This document shows positions 21,977-29,447 of a stretch of DNA of 29,447 nucleotides, one piece after another. The notes beneath the pieces were generated by a model. The model made no database searches, was not told where the DNA came from, and saw nothing but the letters and a program-made list of their open reading frames with translations. Numbering within the stretch: position 1 is the first letter of the stretch; every line of letters begins with the position of its first letter. The DNA comes from a virus. Its lineage: Duplodnaviria > Caudoviricetes. Location of the stretch: positions 1 to 29,447 of the IMG/VR virus record IMGVR_UViG_3300017658_000230; one strand, written 5' to 3'. A program made the translations under genes and the position numbers.

Positions 21977-22010
21977 ATGAAAAAATTTCATGGAAAGTTG
22001 GCGGTAAACT

Positions 22011-22160
22011 GTGACGGTTAAACAATTAAAAGAATTTCTTGAAAATATTCCTGATGATTATACTGTGGAAGTAGATGATTCTTATAACCAAACTTATTGG
22101 AAACTTGGAGATGAAACAGAAATTATAATCCATAAAGAAAGTAAAACAATTGTGTTTTAG
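22011..22160 (+). CDS. Small hypothetical protein (49 aa; absent from the ORF track)
   Basis: Translated by hand as MTVKQLKEFLENIPDDYTVEV...KESKTIVF*; GTG start with RBS-like GGCGGT. Confidence 0.6.
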   Translation: MTVKQLKEFLENIPDDYTVEVDDSYNQTYWKLGDETEIIIHKESKTIVF

Positions 22161-22226
22161 TATGGAGTAGGATACTACTGTGCAGCACTGATAATTAAAA
22201 AATAAGGAAAAAAAGAAGCCCCTTTC

Positions 22227-22388
22227 CTATTCGGATTGGGACTTTTCTAATCCTTTTATTATTAATTGTCTGATAGCTTCATTTCGATTTTTAATTTTAT
22301 TCTCATGCCAGTAATTATGTATCTCTTCCAATAATTCATTTGGAAAGGTAACTAATACTTGTGTATTCTTTTCTTTATCAACTGCCAA
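22227..22388 (-). CDS. Ribbon-helix-helix (CopG-like) DNA-binding protein (53 aa)
   Basis: RBS AGGAGGTG before TTG 22388; QVLVTFPNELLEEI...NRNEAIRQLI is a beta-alpha-alpha pattern. Confidence 0.82.
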   Translation of the reverse strand: MAVDKEKNTQVLVTFPNELLEEIHNYWHENKIKNRNEAIRQLIIKGLEKSQSE

Positions 22389-22409
22389 ATTTATACACCT
22401 CCTAAAAGT

Positions 22410-22433
22410 ATTATAAGTTATATAACTTATAAT
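22410..22433. repeat. Perfect 24-bp palindrome ATTATAAGTTATATAACTTATAAT (probable RHH operator)
   Basis: Read directly. A 15/16 copy of its core (TATAAGTCATATAACT) recurs at 22468-22483. Confidence 0.85.
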
Positions 22434-22461
22434 TGACAATAAGAATATTCGTTCTTATAAT
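22433..22461 (+). promoter_or_regulatory. Consensus sigma-A promoter for the recombinase, with a LexA (Cheo)-box-like site in the spacer
   Basis: TTGACA(22433-38)-17 bp-TATAAT(22456-61). AGAATATTCGTTCT at 22442-22455 has one mismatch to GAAC-N4-GTTC. Confidence 0.8.
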
Positions 22462-22505
22462 AGGTTATATAAGTCATATAACTACATGTGGATGAGGTGA
22501 TTAAA

Positions 22506-23510
22506 TTGGATGTAATTGATTTTGCGAAGGAACAGTTGTTAAATGATTTGGCTGAATTGGAAAACGCTCGGAAAAGTAAGGATTATGATGATGACAGATA
22601 CAAATTAAAGTTAGCTGGTATTTTATCAAATTACGATGTGAAACGTGAAACTAATGAGGTATTTGATTCTGACATACAGGAAAAAATCAGTGTGTTTCTT
22701 TCAGCTAAGAAAATTGAAGGGTTGTCTCCTAAAACTTTAGAAAATTATCGTCTTGAGTTAAATCTCTTTGATAAGGCTTTAATTAAGAATGTTTCTGATA
22801 TCACTTCTAATGACATACGTTTATACTTATCAAGATACGACAATTTAAAAATGTCCACTATAAGAAAGAAATTATGGGTTCTGAAAAGTTTCTTTGGATG
22901 GTTGCATACAGAAGAAGTTATTTCAAGAAATCCAACTGCAAAAGTAAAACCACCTAAAGTAGAATCGTTAATGGTGAAAACTTTTAGCATAGAAGAATTA
23001 GAAATGATGAGGGAATCTTGTCAGACACTAAGAGAAAGAACATTAGTCGAATGTCTCTATAGTTCTGGAGCAAGATTAAGCGAGTTGCAGCAATTAAATA
23101 TTAGTGATGTAGATTTTCAAGATAAGAGTAGTAAGGTAATCGGTAAAGGGCAGAAGGAGCGAATTGTCTATTTTTCTATTAAGGCAATTTTCTATTTGAG
23201 AAAGTATTTAAGAAGTAGAAATGATGATTGTGAAGCGTTATTTATCACACAAAGAAAACCTTACAGAAGGATAACTAATCGTGGAATACAAAGAGAAATA
23301 AGAATAATTAGTGAGCGAGCAGGTATCTCTCAAAATATTAGTCCTCACTGGTATCGTAGGAGCATGGCTACAAACATGATGGAAAAAGGTGCTTCATTAT
23401 CAGCAGTTCAGCATATACTTGGTCACTCTTCACCAAACACTACACAACTTTATTGTAATGTGCCTGAAGAGATGAAGAAAGAACAACATAGAAAATATTT
23501 ACCGTTATGA
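22506..23510 (+). CDS. Tyrosine recombinase, XerC/XerD-like with N-terminal SAM-like domain
   Basis: Complete catalytic set: SGARLSEL (R), GKGQK (K), HWYRR (HxxR), LGH, TQLY. The RBS GAGGTGA favours TTG 22506. Confidence 0.93.
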   Translation: MDVIDFAKEQLLNDLAELENARKSKDYDDDRYKLKLAGILSNYDVKRETNEVFDSDIQEKISVFLSAKKIEGLSPKTLENYRLELNLFDKALIKNVSDITSNDIRLYLSRYDNLKMSTIRKKLWVLKSFFGWLHTEEVISRNPTAKVKPPKVESLMVKTFSIEELEMMRESCQTLRERTLVECLYSSGARLSELQQLNISDVDFQDKSSKVIGKGQKERIVYFSIKAIFYLRKYLRSRNDDCEALFITQRKPYRRITNRGIQREIRIISERAGISQNISPHWYRRSMATNMMEKGASLSAVQHILGHSSPNTTQLYCNVPEEMKKEQHRKYLPL

Positions 23511-23532
23511 GAGCCGAAGAAGGCTCTTTTTT
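23510..23532 (+). terminator. Rho-independent terminator
   Basis: AGAGCC-GAAGAA-GGCTCT followed by a T-run. Confidence 0.7.
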
Positions 23533-23560
23533 ATTGTCCATTTTAAGGAGGTGATTCCAA

Positions 23561-23755
23561 ATGGAGCAACGTGTTTCAAAACTAGAAGATGAAATGAAGG
23601 ATGTAAAAACTCGTTTGGCGGTAGCTGAGTCTAACATTAAGGATATTAAAGAAGATATTTCTTCAATAAAAAGTAATACAACATGGCTATTAAGGATTGT
23701 AGTAGCAGCAATAATCGCAGCCATATTTGGATTGATTTTAAAAGGAGGGGTTTAG
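23561..23755 (+). CDS. XhlA-family lysis/holin-associated protein
   Basis: Coiled coil followed by NTTWLLRIVVAAII and a single C-terminal transmembrane segment. Confidence 0.82.
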   Translation: MEQRVSKLEDEMKDVKTRLAVAESNIKDIKEDISSIKSNTTWLLRIVVAAIIAAIFGLILKGGV

Positions 23756-23980
23756 ATGGATAAAGCAAGTGTTACACGATTTGCTTTGTTAATTGTAGCA
23801 GTGATAAATTCTGTGCTAAACATGCTAGGCTACGAAACTATTCCTGAAAATTTAGTTAATGATATCATCGCTGTTGGATCAGGTTTATACATATTGTACG
23901 CAGGATGGAAGAACAATTACTTAAGTAAAAAAGGATTAAAACAGAAAGAAATACTTAAAGAAAATGACTTAGCAAAGTAG
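23756..23980 (+). CDS. Holin (SPP1 family)
   Basis: MDKASVTRFALLIVAVIN...WKNNYLSKKG pattern. Confidence 0.88.
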   Translation: MDKASVTRFALLIVAVINSVLNMLGYETIPENLVNDIIAVGSGLYILYAGWKNNYLSKKGLKQKEILKENDLAK

Positions 23981-24011
23981 GAGTGATAACTAAAGGTTAT
24001 CGCTCTTTTTT
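23980..24011 (+). terminator. Rho-independent terminator between holin and lysin
   Basis: GAGTGATAAC-TAAAG-GTTATCGCTC followed by a T-run. Confidence 0.65.
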
Positions 24012-24038
24012 ATTACAAAAAATTAGGAGGAATTTATA

Positions 24039-24764
24039 ATGGCATTCACACCTAAATACAATGAAAGAAATTTAAAAAACTTAGCTCAACTTGGTGACAA
24101 TACTAAGAAGAAAGCTATCCAATGGTACGAATATTTAGTTGAGAATGAAATTGAAGTATTAATTTATGAAACTATTCGTTCCGTTGAAACACAAAAAGCA
24201 AATGTAGCTAAAGGCGCTTCTCAAACAATGAAATCCTATCATATTGTAGGTCAAGCATTAGACTTTGTAATGATTGATTCTAAAGGTAATGCATTATGGA
24301 GTGGCTACGGTTCTTCTGATGCTAAAAAGGCTATTGTAAAAGCTAAATCATTAGGTTTTGAATGGGGCGGAGATTGGTCAGGATTTGTAGATAAACCACA
24401 TTTACAGTACAACTATAAAGGCTATGGCACAGATACCTTTAAAACCAAAGGTGACGCTATTTCTTTATCTGAAGCTAAAAAATCCACATCTAAAACAACT
24501 ACAACAGTTAAGGAAACTGAAACAAAGAAATCTACATATACTTTACCAACTAGTACATACAAAAAAGGCTCTAAAGGTGCTGCTGTAAAACAAATTCAAG
24601 AAGCGTTGAATAAACTTTACTTCAAATGTGGAACTGCTGACGGTATTTGGGGGGCTAAAACAGATGATGCGCTAAGACGTTTCCAAAGTGTTTATTGCAA
24701 CCCTGTAGATGGTATTTATGGCAAGAATACTCGTGCTGCTATGTTAAAACAATTGAATAAGTAA
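24039..24764 (+). CDS. Endolysin: M15 L-Ala-D-Glu peptidase (Ply500/CwlK-like) plus PG_binding_1 domain
   Basis: R..ETQ, SYHIVGQALD and WGGDW..FVDKPHLQ motifs; Thr/Lys linker; KKGSKG.AVKQIQ...ADGIWGAKT...VDGIYG. Confidence 0.93.
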   Translation: MAFTPKYNERNLKNLAQLGDNTKKKAIQWYEYLVENEIEVLIYETIRSVETQKANVAKGASQTMKSYHIVGQALDFVMIDSKGNALWSGYGSSDAKKAIVKAKSLGFEWGGDWSGFVDKPHLQYNYKGYGTDTFKTKGDAISLSEAKKSTSKTTTTVKETETKKSTYTLPTSTYKKGSKGAAVKQIQEALNKLYFKCGTADGIWGAKTDDALRRFQSVYCNPVDGIYGKNTRAAMLKQLNK

Positions 24765-24824
24765 AACGTCTATACTTGAATAAAAATAAATCGCTTGGGC
24801 AAATATATTAAAAAACTCTAAGGA

Positions 24825-25124
24825 ATGAACTTGATGAAAAAGAGATATTTATTATTTGCCTTTCTTTGTTTATTTTTAATAATGTCAGTTGCAACAAATC
24901 CTTCTGATAAAGATGAATATGCTGATTGGGTAGGCAATCAGATTAAACAAGAAGAAGGTTCCTTATTAGGAATGATTGGTGGATCTCTTATTAAATTAGG
25001 AACATCAAAAAAGGATTTTGTTTTGTTTACTATATATGAGACAAAATTTGATGAAAATGATAAAAAGCCATTGTTGGCATTAGGGATATTCAATAATTTT
25101 ATTTGGTTGCAAGAAGGGGAGTAG
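24825..25124 (+). CDS. Membrane-anchored/exported moron protein (DUF4359-like)
   Basis: Signal/TM segment followed by TNPS.DEY..W; LGIFNNFI C-terminus. Confidence 0.55.
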   Translation: MNLMKKRYLLFAFLCLFLIMSVATNPSDKDEYADWVGNQIKQEEGSLLGMIGGSLIKLGTSKKDFVLFTIYETKFDENDKKPLLALGIFNNFIWLQEGE

Positions 25125-25140
25125 CTTATTTTGCTACTCT

Positions 25141-25338
25141 CTATTTTTTTATCCAAATTTCACGCATATCCATGTTTAATTCTTCAGAAATACTATACAA
25201 AACCTTAAATGAAGGGAACGATTTATTATTGACTATGGCACTTAAAGCTCCAGAACTAACTCCAATCTTTTTAGCAAATTCTCCTTGATGAATTTCTCTC
25301 TCCGCAAAAATTACTTTCAGTCGACATCTATACTCCAT
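25141..25338 (-). CDS. Cro/C1-type HTH transcriptional regulator
   Basis: RLKVIFAEREIHQGEFAKKIGVSSGALSAIVNNKSFPS; RBS GAGGTG before ATG 25338. Confidence 0.88.
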   Translation of the reverse strand: MEYRCRLKVIFAEREIHQGEFAKKIGVSSGALSAIVNNKSFPSFKVLYSISEELNMDMREIWIKK

Positions 25339-25408
25339 CTTAAACACCTCATTTTATTAATTCTCCATAACTTTCTATACTCCTTTTAAAAATATTTCAG
25401 TGGACAAG

Positions 25409-25438
25409 ATATATTGGACAAACCAATCTTCATACCAT
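25409..25438 (+). promoter_or_regulatory. Putative sporulation sigma-E (or sigma-K) promoter for the ftsK module
   Basis: ATATATT-N15-CATACCAT compared with sigma-E consensus (T/G)(C/A)ATA..-N14/15-CATACA.T. Confidence 0.5.
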
Positions 25439-25594
25439 TTAATATACCAAATGAATTACCACCCTAGTAGCTTGATCGAGCATATGCCAGATCTCTTTAT
25501 ACCAGTATCTGAAGCTATCTTTTTAGAATGCTAGATGAATGGGATAGATACTATGTATCTATAAAGAGGTGGCGTAGGAAAGGAGGAATATCAA

Positions 25595-26926
25595 TTGATT
25601 TTTGAAGCTGTTACAACAGTGTTGATGGGAGGTTTAGCTCTACAAGCTCATCTCTCAAAAAACGGAGTTGGAAATGACTCGAAAAAATTAAACAAAATAT
25701 TTGCTCTCACAGGACTTAATGTAAAGGACGGAACACAAACACTTACTACTCAATTAGTAAAGAAACGCAATTATGATTGGGGGACTGAATATCGTTACAG
25801 AATCCCTTTAGGAAGGAGCTTTGAGGACTATATCGCCAAACAAAAATCGATTGAAGCAGGGATAAATACACGTACAGTTAAACTTCAAATAGGAGATCTA
25901 AAACAGCTTAAATTAGACCGGAATATTGTTCAGAGTATTAGAAGTCTCTATAAGAGAAAACTCACTGAGAGGAAGGAAATAGAGCTATCCTATGATGGAA
26001 TGTTAATCATCCGTGTGTATGATGAGCCAATGCCAACATTAGTCGAAATGTTTAATGGAAAAGGTTGGTCTGTTCCAATTGGAATTATTAGAGAAAAGAA
26101 CAAATCTATATTTCACGACTTTGAAAAAATTCCACACTTTGTATTAGGCGGAGCCACACGATATGGAAAATCGAACTTAATTAATGGTATTATTGCTTCT
26201 TTAATTAAACAACAGCCGAATCATGTAAAGCTTCATCTTGTGGACTTAAAAGGTGGCGTGGAACTATGTGACTATGAAAATATTAAGCAGACTGTTTCTA
26301 TCGCATATGAGCCAGAAGAAGCCAGGGATGTTTTAGCATCTGCCTATGAAGAAATGAGAAAGATGCAACAAAGGGTTAGAAAGCTGGGGAAAAAGAATGT
26401 CCAAGAAGCTGGCATAAAAGAAAGGCATTTTATCATCATTGATGAAGTTGGAGAATTAAATCCTGATGAAGCAGTAGATAAAAAGGATGTAAAAAAAGAT
26501 GGATTTGTCATTCATAAAAGTGAAAAAACATTAAAAGAAGAATGCCAAAAATATATGAGTCAAATATCGCGATTAGGTGCAGGCTTAGGATTTCGTTTAA
26601 TTCTAGCGACACAATACGGAACAGGAGATATCATACCTAGACAATGCAAACAAAATAGTGATGCAAAATTATGCTTTCGTGTCCAGTCTTCCACAGCATC
26701 AAGAGTTGTGTTAGATGGAGAAGGGGCAGAGAAATTACCCGAAATAAAAGGTCGTGCCATATATCAAACAGCCGATAAAAAAGTCATAGTTCAAACTCCA
26801 CTAATAACTTCAGAAATTATCCATTCCATTATTAATCCACACATAAAAGAGGTGAAACCAGTTGAAACAGCTAAACAAGCGTCAAGAAGCAATCCTATTA
26901 TCATTAAAAAAACTGGACTTTCTTAA
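25595..26926 (+). CDS. FtsK/SpoIIIE-family ATPase
   Basis: Walker A GGATRYGKS, VDLKGGVEL, Walker B IIIDE, RLGAGLG.RLILATQ and GAEKLP..KGRA motifs; hydrophobic N-terminus; RBS AAGGAGG. Confidence 0.92.
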   Translation: MIFEAVTTVLMGGLALQAHLSKNGVGNDSKKLNKIFALTGLNVKDGTQTLTTQLVKKRNYDWGTEYRYRIPLGRSFEDYIAKQKSIEAGINTRTVKLQIGDLKQLKLDRNIVQSIRSLYKRKLTERKEIELSYDGMLIIRVYDEPMPTLVEMFNGKGWSVPIGIIREKNKSIFHDFEKIPHFVLGGATRYGKSNLINGIIASLIKQQPNHVKLHLVDLKGGVELCDYENIKQTVSIAYEPEEARDVLASAYEEMRKMQQRVRKLGKKNVQEAGIKERHFIIIDEVGELNPDEAVDKKDVKKDGFVIHKSEKTLKEECQKYMSQISRLGAGLGFRLILATQYGTGDIIPRQCKQNSDAKLCFRVQSSTASRVVLDGEGAEKLPEIKGRAIYQTADKKVIVQTPLITSEIIHSIINPHIKEVKPVETAKQASRSNPIIIKKTGLS

Positions 26927-27455
26927 TCGTGATCAACTACAAATTATCCACAAACTAGGAAAGGTTAGAAATGCCAATAGAATACTCAAAGAGCTATCAC
27001 CTTACTTAGAATCCTACAGAGAAGAATATTCCACTATTTATTATTTAAATACTGAAGGTAGAGCATATGTAAATTCAAATAAAATTAGACGAAAGAATCC
27101 ATTTGTAAATCACACAATTATGAGAAACTATTTTTACATTTTTGCAAAGTGTCCTGTTGAATGGGATAACGAAATAAGTGTAACTGATGGGCTAACTACT
27201 TTAGTTACAGATACATGGTTTAAAGTAAATGGAAAGTATCACTTTCTAGAAGTGGATTCTTTACAAAAGATGAAAGAAAATCGAGCAAAGGTGAAGAATT
27301 ATCTAGCATTGTTTAATGCAGGACATCTAAAGAAACATTTTGGATACTTCCCACCTTTGATATGGCTGACTACAACTGAATTGAGAAGAAAGCAGTTAAA
27401 AGAATTGTGCAAGGAATTACCGTGTGTTGTTTATACGATTGATGAAATTAGATAG
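26862..27455 (+). CDS. Replication-relaxation family-like protein (winged HTH plus PD-(D/E)xK-type nuclease)
   Basis: N-terminal wHTH (LNRDQLQ...YYLNTEG); HTIMRN, VTDTWF, FLEVD and LIWLTTTELR motifs; overlaps ftsK by 65 nt. Confidence 0.72.
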   Translation: MKQLNKRQEAILLSLKKLDFLNRDQLQIIHKLGKVRNANRILKELSPYLESYREEYSTIYYLNTEGRAYVNSNKIRRKNPFVNHTIMRNYFYIFAKCPVEWDNEISVTDGLTTLVTDTWFKVNGKYHFLEVDSLQKMKENRAKVKNYLALFNAGHLKKHFGYFPPLIWLTTTELRRKQLKELCKELPCVVYTIDEIR

Positions 27456-27548
27456 CATTTTATCCTACGTGATATTGCAGGATATTGTTTGATAGTCAAC
27501 TATCTTTGTAGATATTTATTGATAAACATTTATAAGGGAGAGATTAAT

Positions 27549-27977
27549 ATGCAAACAATAGCATTTAATGAATTCATGGACGGTAGCTATAAAACAGCTA
27601 AGAAAGAAGTTAAGAAAAAATCTAATGTAGGTAAACTGGTAAGGAGAGTAGGAACTTCAATTGCTATTCCACTTATTATGGCTAAACCTGCCTTTGCTGC
27701 TAGTCCAACAGATGCAGTTCCAGTCGGTGCGACAGAGTGGATGGGAGAACAAACTTTATCAGCTTTAGCACATGCATTAGATCCATTAGTTGATGTACTA
27801 GTTGCGTTATCTTTTCCTGTTGCTAGTGTAATTATTGTAGGTGGCTGTTTCTTCTTTATGCTAGGTAATAGCGATAAGGCTTGGAGTACAATTCAAAATG
27901 CTGGATTAGGCTATGTATTGATACAGATTTCTCCGTTGATATTGAATGTGTTAAAGCAGATTGGGAATGCAGTATAA
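27549..27977 (+). CDS. VirB2/TrbC pilin-like membrane protein (142 aa)
   Basis: RBS AAGGGAG before ATG 27549. Basic leader, PAFAA cleavage-like motif, then two hydrophobic helices linked by GNSDKAW. Confidence 0.55.
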   Translation: MQTIAFNEFMDGSYKTAKKEVKKKSNVGKLVRRVGTSIAIPLIMAKPAFAASPTDAVPVGATEWMGEQTLSALAHALDPLVDVLVALSFPVASVIIVGGCFFFMLGNSDKAWSTIQNAGLGYVLIQISPLILNVLKQIGNAV

Positions 27978-28022
27978 AATTTTACGCGTTCAAAAAAAAA
28001 CTACAAATTTTAACAATTTTAT

Positions 28023-28050
28023 AAAGGATAATCCTTCCAAATAGTCGAAT
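28023..28050 (+). promoter_or_regulatory. Sigma-H-type promoter
   Basis: AAAGGATAA-N12-GTCGAAT matches RNAGGAWWW-N11/12-RNNGAAT. Confidence 0.6.
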
Positions 28051-28075
28051 TAGTAGACAAAAGGAAGGTGATAAG

Positions 28076-28486
28076 GTGGAAAATGGAGTTGCTAAAACAA
28101 TAAAAATCGTTGGTATATTAGAAATGTTAGCAGGATTTATTATTGGATATTTCTTAGGTAATGAAGGTACAGGTTATAGTAGTGAAATGCATGAATCAGT
28201 ATTTATTTACTGGGTAATTATTGGTTTTGTATCTGGTATGCTCTTTATCGGTTTTTCCGAGGTAATACAGTTACTGCATAATATCAATGAAAAACTTAGA
28301 AAGAAATTTGATACAACGGAAGGAGATAAGGAGTTAATAGAGAAATTACAGCGAATAAAGGAAACAAAAGTAAATATGAACAATGGCAAGAACATTATGA
28401 GAATAAAAAAGATATGTAAAATAATTATACCCTTCAAATTTGAGGGGTATTTTTTTTGCTTAAATATCCTAGTTTCTTCATTATAA
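28076..28486 (+). CDS. Two-TM membrane moron protein, probably frameshifted near 28340 (natural stop likely 28417-28419)
   Basis: Two hydrophobic segments followed by GFSEVIQLLHNI. The ORF as called runs through its own terminator. Confidence 0.6.
   Translation: MENGVAKTIKIVGILEMLAGFIIGYFLGNEGTGYSSEMHESVFIYWVIIGFVSGMLFIGFSEVIQLLHNINEKLRKKFDTTEGDKELIEKLQRIKETKVNMNNGKNIMRIKKICKIIIPFKFEGYFFCLNILVSSL
28427..28457 (+). terminator. Rho-independent terminator
   Basis: ATACCCTTCAA-AT-TTGAGGGGTAT followed by a T-run. Confidence 0.75.
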
Positions 28487-28599
28487 TATAGGTGAAAACT
28501 AAACCATAAAAATAGAAAATTATGATATATATGTGGACAACTGGTATTTATCATGGTATATTTTTCTTAACATAATAGGCGAGATTAATTAGTTAGATA

Positions 28600-28640
28600 A
28601 TCGTTGATAAATCAAGGTTTTTCATGATGATGATGCAAAT
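28600..28640. other. Prophage attR junction
   Basis: Inverted repeat TTGAT-AA-ATCAA followed by GGTTTTTC, directly abutting the yneF codons ATGATGATGATGCAAATG. Confidence 0.65.
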
Positions 28641-28710
28641 GGGAATGAAACCATCCCAAAAGAAAATCAATCAAATGATGTCAGCGATGAACAAACAGCA
28701 AGGCAAATAA
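28624..28710 (+). pseudogene. yneF: Orphaned 3' end of host yneF (UPF0154)
   Basis: Translates as [28 protein letters not shown], matching the YneF C-terminus as recalled. The N-terminal TM part is absent upstream. Confidence 0.88.
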
Positions 28711-28881
28711 GTTTGTTCCCTTGCTTTGCTGCGCTAGTTAAAGCAGACGGCAAAAATGGAAACGTTTGTGGCATTAAATGATGTGCATGTATAGGACAAG
28801 TTAAAGCTTCAATTTCTTATTAAATAGAAGCTTTTATTATAAATTGTTTTATTTATGCTTTATCTTTCATCAAAACAATCC

Positions 28882-28930
28882 AAAACCACTTTTCTCTTTG
28901 GACATGCATCCAATGGAAGAGTGGTTTTTT
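28882..28930 (+). terminator. Hairpin/terminator in the host intergenic region
   Basis: AAAACCACTTTTC...GAAGAGTGGTTTTTT with an inner TTGGA/TCCAA stem. Confidence 0.55.
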
Positions 28931-29192
28931 ATGTTGTTTGAAAATGCTCTAGGTGAGGGAAGGATGTATCATGGCAAGACTGGGAGATTTACAGCAAAGG
29001 CGATGAAAAATAAATGACAGCAATTAGCGATGAAAATTGTTTTTAATGGAGTGGCGCTATTGGCAGCAAGCAGACATCTTATGAAGTAAGTGTCTGATAA
29101 AATTGCAAAGTATGCCAGCAAAAAAAGTATCATAGGAAGAAACGAAAAAGCAGCAGTTTTTCTCTTTGGCTATGTGGATAGAAATTAAGGCA

Positions 29193-29238
29193 TTTCAGCA
29201 CCAGCCGATCTTTGGACTTTGGACTATTGGTGCTGAAA
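29193..29238. repeat. 11-bp inverted repeat downstream of ynzD (possible terminator)
   Basis: TTTCAGCACCA (29193-29203) and TGGTGCTGAAA (29228-29238). Confidence 0.5.
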
Positions 29239-29291
29239 CTAATGGGGGAAATGGTGAATGTAATGGTGTTGGGTCATTTGAGGGAAGGTAT

Positions 29292-29447
29292 TTAATTTTT
29301 TTTTTGTATGTTATATTTATTTAATAATTGATCGAGTTCTTGGCTGCAGGCAATGGTGGCATGTGAAGAGAATCCATATTTTTTGGCAGTATCAATTAAT
29401 TCCTCTCTTTTTGTTTCAATGAGATGCAATAAGTGTCCTTTTGACAT
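29292..29447 (-). CDS. ynzD: Spo0E-family aspartyl-phosphate phosphatase (51 aa; absent from the ORF track)
   Basis: Translated by hand as MSKGHLLHLIETKREELIDTAKKYGFSSHATIACSQELDQLLNKYNIQKKN*. It has the SQELD signature, and yneF-ynzD synteny matches B. subtilis. Confidence 0.85.
   Translation of the reverse strand: MSKGHLLHLIETKREELIDTAKKYGFSSHATIACSQELDQLLNKYNIQKKN

Follow-up and report, generated by a model that had tools for sequence, protein, structure and literature searches.

What a tailed phage does with proteins of the kind that serve conjugation is the question raised by the IMG/VR record IMGVR_UViG_3300017658_000230 (Duplodnaviria; Caudoviricetes), a provirus of 29,447 bases which was analysed over its whole length (hereafter the window) and is estimated to be 75% complete, its missing early region being unseen. 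After the lysin gene lies a cassette of about 2.8 kb in which, as the initial annotation had placed them, four open reading frames (ORFs) encode a divergent helix-turn-helix (HTH) regulator and then an FtsK/SpoIIIE-family ATPase, a Replic_Relax nuclease and a 142-residue pilin-like protein. The answer offered here, which we hold tentatively, is that the cassette may be a conjugation-derived nick-and-pump module acting on the element's own DNA. It draws on the protein families, folds, gene coupling, cassette behaviour and position, from which we infer all of the protein activities; homology is what suggests the virion-independent nicking and membrane transfer of phage DNA that were first proposed for this locus. 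The cassette is not new: many phages and plasmids of the Bacillus type already have it annotated, and the supposition that these genes had not been treated by others does not hold, a related operon having been described in 2012 (PMC3357382) and the trio of ATPase, nuclease and pilin-like genes having been named in 2022 (PMC9658697).

Proteins encoded by the cassette

The ATPase (443 residues, positions 25595–26926, plus strand) matches the FtsK/SpoIIIE family in Pfam (PF01580, E-value 7e-18, 65.3 bits against a cut-off of 24) and phrog_1358 in PHROG (E-value 8.5e-106). Both motifs reported as intact in the initial annotation were located, Walker A as GATRYGKS at residues 186–193 and Walker B as FIIIDE at residues 279–284. 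The makeup of a bona fide FtsK/SpoIIIE translocase was not found: Pfam detects no FtsK_gamma domain, only PF01580 over residues 168–271, there is one weakly hydrophobic N-terminal segment and no multi-pass domain, and the NCBIfam FtsK model scores 47.7 bits against a cut-off of 1566. The best sequence matches in the PDB are 6o1z, 6o1w and 6o1x, described as “DNA translocase coupling protein” (1.4e-18, 70.1 bits, over residues 171–396), compared with 4.7e-14 and 55.2 bits for the FtsK entry 2ius. This greater proximity to 6o1z than to FtsK, together with the overlapping gene of the MOBC family, points to a coupling protein of the TcpA type, 6o1z being identified as TcpA by its entry title and a review and not by alignment to a named TcpA sequence. 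The hydrophobic N-terminus noted at first stands as a conserved segment, which exceeds the hydropathy mark of 1.6 used here in the homologues from Pony, Geobacillus PT9.1 and B. mycoides p206, whereas strong hydropathy is not borne out in this copy, where the mean Kyte-Doolittle value in the first 19-residue windows is 1.26–1.36.

The nuclease gene (26862–27455, plus strand) overlaps the ATPase gene by 65 nt and encodes a protein of 197 residues recognised by the Replic_Relax family (PF13814, E-value 4.3e-11, 43.7 bits against 25.3). Proteins of PF13814 are those matched by the MOBC relaxase profile of CONJscan (PMC5357655), and the assignment of the Pfam family to the PD-(D/E)XK nucleases dates from 2012 (PMC3424549). 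The AlphaFold model (pTM 0.81) combines a winged helix at the N-terminus with an alpha/beta nuclease core, the best Foldseek matches of the latter being the PD-(D/E)XK enzymes Can2/Card1, Ecl18kI, the nickase Nt.BspD6I and Cas4, which agrees with the overlapping winged helix-turn-helix (wHTH) and nuclease gene of the Replication-relaxation family initially recognised from the sequence. Against PDB sequences the protein gave only weak, spurious rBAT matches, and NCBIfam has no match for it or for the pilin-like protein. Residues H84, E104, D117, E130, D132 and Q135 are invariant in 30 homologues; from the conservation of its catalytic acidic residues and of the Walker motifs it follows that activity is under selection.

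The pilin-like gene (27549–27977, plus strand) encodes a small membrane protein of 142 residues, or 162 if translation starts from TTG 27489, which belongs to phrog_5422 (E-value 2.4e-43). Its N-region is basic and is followed by a hydrophobic stretch that ends in AFA (residues 48–50) and by two long hydrophobic helices, modelled at residues 59–104 and 108–141 with a pLDDT of about 80–90. The predicted arrangement of a long leader with a signal-peptidase-type site, two hydrophobic helices and a short loop is the one seen in VirB2/TrbC proteins. Among 35 homologues, T4SS_pilin (PF18895) is matched by 33 and TrbC (PF04956) by 23 at an E-value of at most 0.01 (best values 2e-6 and 5.1e-7, respectively); several are named TrbC/VirB2 in their sources, some of them with these Pfam domains in precomputed annotation, and the ESM Atlas neighbours of the window protein include clusters partly annotated as TrbC or T4SS_pilin. 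Judged by these comparisons, the protein matches VirB2-type pilin families weakly but consistently. The profile of the family found nothing among PDB sequences at an E-value of at most 10, and modelling the ATPase together with the mature pilin-like protein gave a complex score of 0.01, which is evidence neither way.

Linkage and genomic context

The three genes, which had been taken together as one system, do occur together elsewhere. The 80 best of 107 IMG/VR loci retrieved with the Replic_Relax alignment, a sample skewed towards at least 42% identity and containing many near-duplicates, have the ATPase gene directly upstream of Replic_Relax in 79 cases, the sole exception beginning at the relaxase gene, and the pilin-like gene directly downstream in 75. 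Likewise, both partners are present in all 38 bacterial loci with a full-length pilin-like gene, out of 53 retrieved with the pilin-like alignment; ten others hold only fragments of it and five give no profile match. Among the loci with fragments (L108, L114, L126, L127, L128, L132, L134, L135, L139 and L140), eight are without either partner, L126 has an FtsK piece only, and in L127 the pilin-like gene is split but both partners are retained next to it; these ten loci may be remnants left by prophages lost or replaced at the same chromosome sites.

In a tblastn search of 50,697 phage records the ATPase was found in 293, Replic_Relax in 105 and the pilin-like protein in 43, and most of the 60 Replic_Relax matches listed overlap or adjoin a gene annotated as FtsK-type. 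The Replic_Relax gene is also present in 124 plasmid records. The organism names in the match tables are almost only those of phages and plasmids of endospore-forming Bacillaceae, with two records labelled as Staphylococcus phage. The four genes form a cassette that travels together in phages, prophages and plasmids of this family. With megablast the cassette has no match in the phage or plasmid collection, its relatives being found at the protein level only. The closest homologues of the cassette proteins carry Niallia names, and for this reason the host is probably a Niallia. In the more distant cassettes of WBeta, Pony, Geobacillus PT9.1 and B. mycoides p206, the ATPase and relaxase genes stand right after the lysis genes with no detectable pilin-like gene. 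In these four, a peptide of 55–62 residues with two hydrophobic helices is encoded just upstream of the ATPase, the short membrane ORFs lying at 2557–2739 of L009, 2462–2629 of L010, 2398–2661 of L011 and 3067–3372 of L012; hhalign of the pilin-like family against the one of WBeta, wp21, gave a probability of 0.3%, and no homology was detected.

Further afield, Replic_Relax exceeds its cut-off in 25 genomes out of a sample of 401 from the phylum of a Niallia genome. The 20 best-scoring of these loci were taken, one per genome, and of the 146 ORFs in them that are 140 residues or longer, 104 were scanned with Pfam, those omitted being the farthest from the match. In 12 of the 20 a DNA-pumping ATPase adjoins Replic_Relax: it is of the VirD4/TrwB type in eight (L144, L147, L148, L149, L150, L157, L159 and L162), of the FtsK_SpoIIIE type in three (L143, L153 and L161) and of the HerA/DUF87 type in one (L156), where TcpC and a VirB4-like AAA_10 gene follow. 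L148 additionally has P-loop_TraG and SLT genes. L146 begins at the relaxase gene and cannot be judged, and the remaining seven show no ATPase neighbour. Going by these gene families, the layout is the ordinary arrangement of a relaxase with a coupling protein, and it favours reading the phage pair as the core of a relaxosome.

The same neighbours would suit mobilisation only, in which the ATPase and relaxase would bring the excised phage DNA to the mating channel of a conjugative element residing in the same cell, an explanation partly nested in the preferred one. Streptococcal integrative and mobilisable elements (IMEs) with a TcpA-type coupling protein and a non-canonical relaxase have been proposed to do this (PMC5357655), CloDF13 MobB/MobC being alike, and of the 124 plasmids with a Replic_Relax gene, 41 are labelled conjugative and 28 mobilizable by MOB-suite (via PLSDB). 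It leaves the private pilin-like protein and the retention of the cassette in lytic phages unexplained, however, and the one host genome examined, a Niallia genome with such prophages, has no VirB4-like AAA_10 gene above cut-off. As the sole function of the cassette, mobilisation is highly improbable.

The position of the cassette was followed in six bacterial genomes from six genera. Upstream phage tail, holin or lysin genes are recognisable in four of them (L095, L096, L109 and L112), the upstream ORFs of L104 and L113 being without a phage-specific Pfam match, and host genes, different each time, come after the pilin-like gene in all six, because of which the cassette appears to be the last operon at one end of the prophage. 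Such a moron position after the lysin, with a repressor of its own, is also what could be expected of a system for defence or exclusion, in which the membrane ATPase and the nuclease would attack DNA arriving from a superinfecting phage, with a plasmid or by transformation, and the secreted small membrane protein would help to keep it out. In B. subtilis, a pair of 96% identical phages is distinguished mainly by a block of 2,525 bp holding FtsK-like, replication-relaxation, HTH and hypothetical genes (PMC9476937), and under laboratory conditions the cassette can be dispensed with (PMC3357382). An ATPase of the FtsK/HerA type paired with a nuclease is a common layout in defence, the ATPase of the window matches SspH and mad8 in PADLOC 2.0 at the domain level only, and some relatives adjoin defence-type genes, namely SduA_C (Shedu) in L143 and Mrr_cat with pPIWI_RE in L153, the cassette of the latter being broken by stops. 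On the other hand, neither Replic_Relax nor the pilin-like protein matches any PADLOC 2.0 model, most of the informative loci put relatives of the nuclease beside conjugative coupling proteins instead, and large plasmids carry the cassette too. Sequence specificity of the wHTH, and a gene so closely coupled in translation to that of a TcpA-like ATPase, also suit a relaxosome better, and we regard defence as unlikely.

Plasmids bring in another explanation, that of an intracellular helper of replication, resolution or segregation, in which the nuclease would nick to start or resolve intermediates while the ATPase segregated the copies. The pair is found within a few kb of the record start in large Bacillus plasmids, and IMG/VR records of about 50 kb and plasmid-like appearance have the cassette near ParA-like genes. 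In addition, phrog_2190, the PHROG family of the Replic_Relax protein, is labelled “replication initiation protein”, the name of the Pfam family comes partly from a report on plasmid replication (PMC3424549), the trio was read in 2022 in terms of plasmid replication and segregation (PMC9658697), and the ATPase of phage Fah is a delayed gene of lytic infection (reviewed in PMC4113786). Phages with the cassette nevertheless have separate, complete replication modules, the genes are dispensable for plaque growth (PMC9476937, PMC3357382), and at the prophage end the cassette is remote from the early genes. There would be no obvious role, either, for a secreted pilin-like protein or for the hydrophobic N-terminus of the ATPase, and we consider this function decidedly unlikely. 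The cassette as a stand-in replication module was rejected, as WBeta has DnaD- and DnaC-like loaders elsewhere and Andromeda and vB_BpsS-36 have polymerase genes of their own.

Regulation and the possible path of the DNA

The HTH gene (25141–25347, minus strand) encodes a Cro/C1-type regulator of 68 residues (Pfam HTH_3, E-value 2.6e-8, 34.2 bits against a cut-off of 23) which also matches transcriptional repressor families in PHROG. Its protein cluster is present in 66 of the 80 IMG/VR loci, and in 56 of them the gene is divergent and at most 500 nt upstream of the FtsK gene. In the window the spacer between the two is 247 nt long and contains conserved blocks while its flanks diverge, and Shine-Dalgarno sequences precede the starts of all four cassette genes. 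One of the conserved blocks is a promoter-like element, ATA-N17-CATACCAT, at 25410–25437 on the plus strand. The corresponding pattern, ATA-N16-18-[CA]ATAC[AC]NT, which was chosen only after the alignment had been viewed, is present at a constant position in 46 of the 111 non-redundant FtsK upstream regions, compared with 1.5 on average and at most 6 in shuffled sequences and none on the reverse strand. The box resembles the consensus of sporulation promoters of the sigma-E type; it could alternatively be read by the sigma factors that many of these phages encode.

Further downstream, the leader holds a hairpin at 25544–25562 (plus strand), read from the sequence as ATAGATAC, the loop TAT and GTATCTAT with 8 bp, followed at 25566–25574 by the Shine-Dalgarno-like motif GAGGTGGCG, which lies ahead of the real ribosome-binding site. 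The motif is invariant in the leader alignment A3, is found in 43 of 123 loci when up to one mismatch is tolerated, and in some loci stands immediately before the start codon. All 32 upstream regions selected because they carry it have a hairpin of 6–9 bp at the same place, with stems that differ yet stay complementary. RNAalifold returned zero pairs on alignment A3, probably because the loop lengths put the arms out of register. Folded singly, the leaders have a mean z against shuffles of only −1.3, the whole-leader fold of the window copy giving −1.27, and the case for the hairpin is thus made by its position and complementary stem variants, not by its stability. A search of 24700–29447 against Rfam gave only one chance snoRNA row and no family for the hairpin, which could be an mRNA leader or stabiliser, or else the DNA hairpin of an origin of transfer.

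Under the preferred reading of a nick-and-pump module, an operon of conjugation-type proteins would be self-regulated through the divergent HTH protein. The wHTH nuclease would recognise and cut a site on the element, replacing the gamma domain that the ATPase lacks, a hexamer of the ATPase would translocate DNA at or across the cytoplasmic membrane, and the pilin-like protein would form or prime the passage through it. The DNA could be destined for a neighbouring cell, for the mating channel of a helper or for the forespore, and the outcome would likely be a route of spread or persistence for the phage without a virion.

One version of this path, conjugation into the spore, would make use of the promoter-like box: from a sigma-E-like promoter the operon would be expressed in the mother cell, the nuclease would cut, and the pump and VirB2-like protein would drive the DNA through the membranes of the forespore, perhaps by way of the channel with which the host connects mother cell and forespore, so that phages and plasmids would ride inside spores. 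This would explain the absence of a channel of the cassette's own and its near-restriction to endospore-forming Bacillaceae, as well as its uselessness in plaque assays and its retention by lytic phages, temperate phages and plasmids alike. We nonetheless consider it very unlikely. Roles related to sporulation have repeatedly been suggested for the FtsK-like gene (PMC4197329, PMC4113786, PMC3359378), as has one in DNA injection (PMC3853050); on the entrapment of phages in forespores with a translocase or relaxase, no relevant literature was found. The initial statement that no function has been assigned to these ftsK genes holds within the literature searched, in which, subscription journals being mostly outside the search, no experimental test of the function of the cassette turned up.

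Several observations weigh against the nick-and-pump reading as a whole. No VirB4, VirB6 or other channel component was detected among the ORFs of the window, in line with what had been noted for the first two: the large ORFs of 1–22000 all serve packaging, head, tail or lysis, and those of 22000–29447 are without either family. The lack of a VirB4-like match in the Niallia genome mentioned above adds to this, and direct-repeat arrays or an obvious origin of transfer adjoining the cassette were sought in the window and none were found. With respect to the proteins, the N-terminal membrane anchor seems weak in this copy of the ATPase, and the pilin-like protein of the window scores under the Pfam gathering thresholds, with 19.3 against 27.9 bits for TrbC and 19.0 against 26.6 bits for T4SS_pilin. 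The VirB2/TrbC likeness initially ascribed to its layout is supported by that layout and by the family-level matches, and not by the gathering score of this copy. Foldseek of its model against the PDB gave nothing at an E-value of at most 0.001, and a wide VIA-align search gave generic helical hairpins (Z 7.2–8.7) with no conjugative pilin among the 50 matches listed, structure searches being uninformative for a two-helix protein. Finally, Andromeda-like phages carry the cassette without the HTH gene, it is also present in phages described as lytic (0305phi8-36, SPO1, gamma and Fah), the deletion of the 0305phi8-36 operon caused no growth defect (PMC3357382), and presence or absence between near-identical phages fits defence genes as well.

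The cassette is among the most widespread accessory modules of Bacillus-type phages. If DNA is indeed moved without virions or into spores, this would be a new route of horizontal transfer and persistence in the bacilli of soil and food, and would involve a rare VirB2-like protein working in a Gram-positive cell; according to a 2025 review, VirB2-like subunits are not found in Gram-positive type IV secretion systems (T4SSs), with Patescibacteria as the sole exception (PMC12857230). The present copy in itself adds little, as one more instance in a Niallia-type prophage; what it contributes is a clean four-gene layout, the co-occurrence numbers and two conserved cis elements, the promoter-like box and the leader hairpin.

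Surrounding genes and comparison with known systems

The ORFs of 1–22000 form the standard late region of a siphovirus. It encodes, besides two HNH endonucleases, both terminase subunits (small and large), the portal, the protease, the major head protein and adaptors; the tail genes are those for the major tail protein, the tape measure, Dit, the tail endopeptidase and the fibres. After the tail fibres come a tyrosine recombinase (22488–23510), XhlA, holin genes and an M15 endolysin, the last of these at 24039–24764 and assigned from Peptidase_M15_4 and PG_binding_1. The recombinase is XerC-like (340 residues, Phage_integrase, E-value 3.3e-36) and is accompanied by a small divergent repressor-like gene (70 residues, phrog_4738) in the interval 22227–23510. 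The interval between tail-fibre and lysis genes is an unusual site for an integrase, and the recombinase cluster is also present in 16 related loci. Between the lysin and the cassette, at 24825–25124, a DUF4359 protein of 99 residues with a signal-like N-terminus (E-value 4.8e-8) is encoded, which recurs in only two loci.

A consensus scan places a terminator-like site at 25116–25142, bounding the cassette on the lysin side, and a terminator-like stem-loop with a T-run at 28427–28450 on the plus strand, which would end the operon. The unit thus bounded also includes, outside the conserved cassette, an ORF of 136 residues (28076–28486, plus strand) with two hydrophobic segments at residues 5–23 and 40–67. 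Its cluster is found in one of 88 loci, that of the window only, it has no match in PHROG, NCBIfam or PADLOC, and the stem-loop falls within its 3' end. Just past the cassette, and truncated by the end of the record, lies a gene for a Spo0E-like sporulation regulator (29292–29447, minus strand; PF09388, E-value 2e-17), which could be host DNA or phage cargo affecting sporulation.

Among coupling proteins, TcpA of C. perfringens pCW3 is the best solved sequence match to the window ATPase. Its hexamer is FtsK-like and transfer of double-stranded DNA has been suggested for it (PMC12857230), and coupling proteins of this type pair with non-canonical relaxases, commonly on IMEs (PMC5357655). TcpA works with the Tcp T4SS (TcpC, TcpF and others), however, of which nothing is seen in the window. 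On the side of the nuclease, MOBC relaxases such as TraX have an N-terminal wHTH and a restriction-endonuclease-like domain, and TraX binds direct repeats 70–120 bp from the nick site and shows no covalent intermediate (PMC12857230). Both TraX of pAD1 and MobC/MobB of CloDF13 resemble the window pair in combining a wHTH and PD-(D/E)XK relaxase with a coupling ATPase encoded beside it, and HHpred has shown CloDF13 MobC to be homologous to phage proteins (PMC3357382). They differ in that TraX and MobC operate as part of complete T4SSs or are mobilised by them, none of which is seen in the window, and the phage Replic_Relax protein, with 197 residues, is shorter than many members of its family (260–360 residues).

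Export of DNA by an FtsK/HerA-type membrane ATPase without a VirB4-type machine is known from Streptomyces TraB and Thermus TdtA (PMC5365140), which serve as precedents at the level of the ATPase superfamily. TraB reads clt through its own C-terminal wHTH and needs no nuclease. TdtA is of the HerA branch, with NurA-like and type IIG nucleases; it needs nucleases encoded alongside, and the competence system of the recipient pulls the DNA in (PMC5365140).

Nearer to the window are systems of Bacillus phages. The “DNA translocation operon” of the B. thuringiensis phage 0305phi8-36, described by Pathria et al. in 2012, comprises a relaxase and a coupling ATPase, and virion-free “propagation-by-translocation” was proposed for it in the same article, which reports partial versions of the operon in SPO1, GBSV1, Bacillus virus 1 and Gamma/Cherry/Fah/WBeta (PMC3357382). 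The likeness lies in a homologue of the MobC-family wHTH relaxase standing beside a coupling-type ATPase and membrane proteins. The ATPase of 0305phi8-36 is, by contrast, AAA_10/VirD4-like and without a membrane segment, and is joined by VirB6-like and MreB-like genes, whereas in the window the ATPase is of the FtsK_SpoIIIE type and is accompanied by a VirB2-like protein and a private HTH gene. The pair in WBeta/Gamma is a direct homologue of that of the window, with Replic_Relax proteins 33.9% identical and the same order after the lysin. The trio of TrbC/VirB2, Replic_Relax and FtsK was named by Skorynina et al. in 2022 for the phages Novomoskovsk and Bolokhovo (PMC9658697). Andromedavirus phages have replication genes of their own and no divergent HTH gene, and the authors read the trio as relics of plasmid replication and segregation (PMC9658697). 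The genes themselves (gp67–69 of Andromeda) are the same as those of the window and in the same order, with identities of 58–59% for FtsK, about 50% for Replic_Relax and 42–44% for the pilin-like protein, whose gene is already annotated there as belonging to the TrbC/VIRB2 family.

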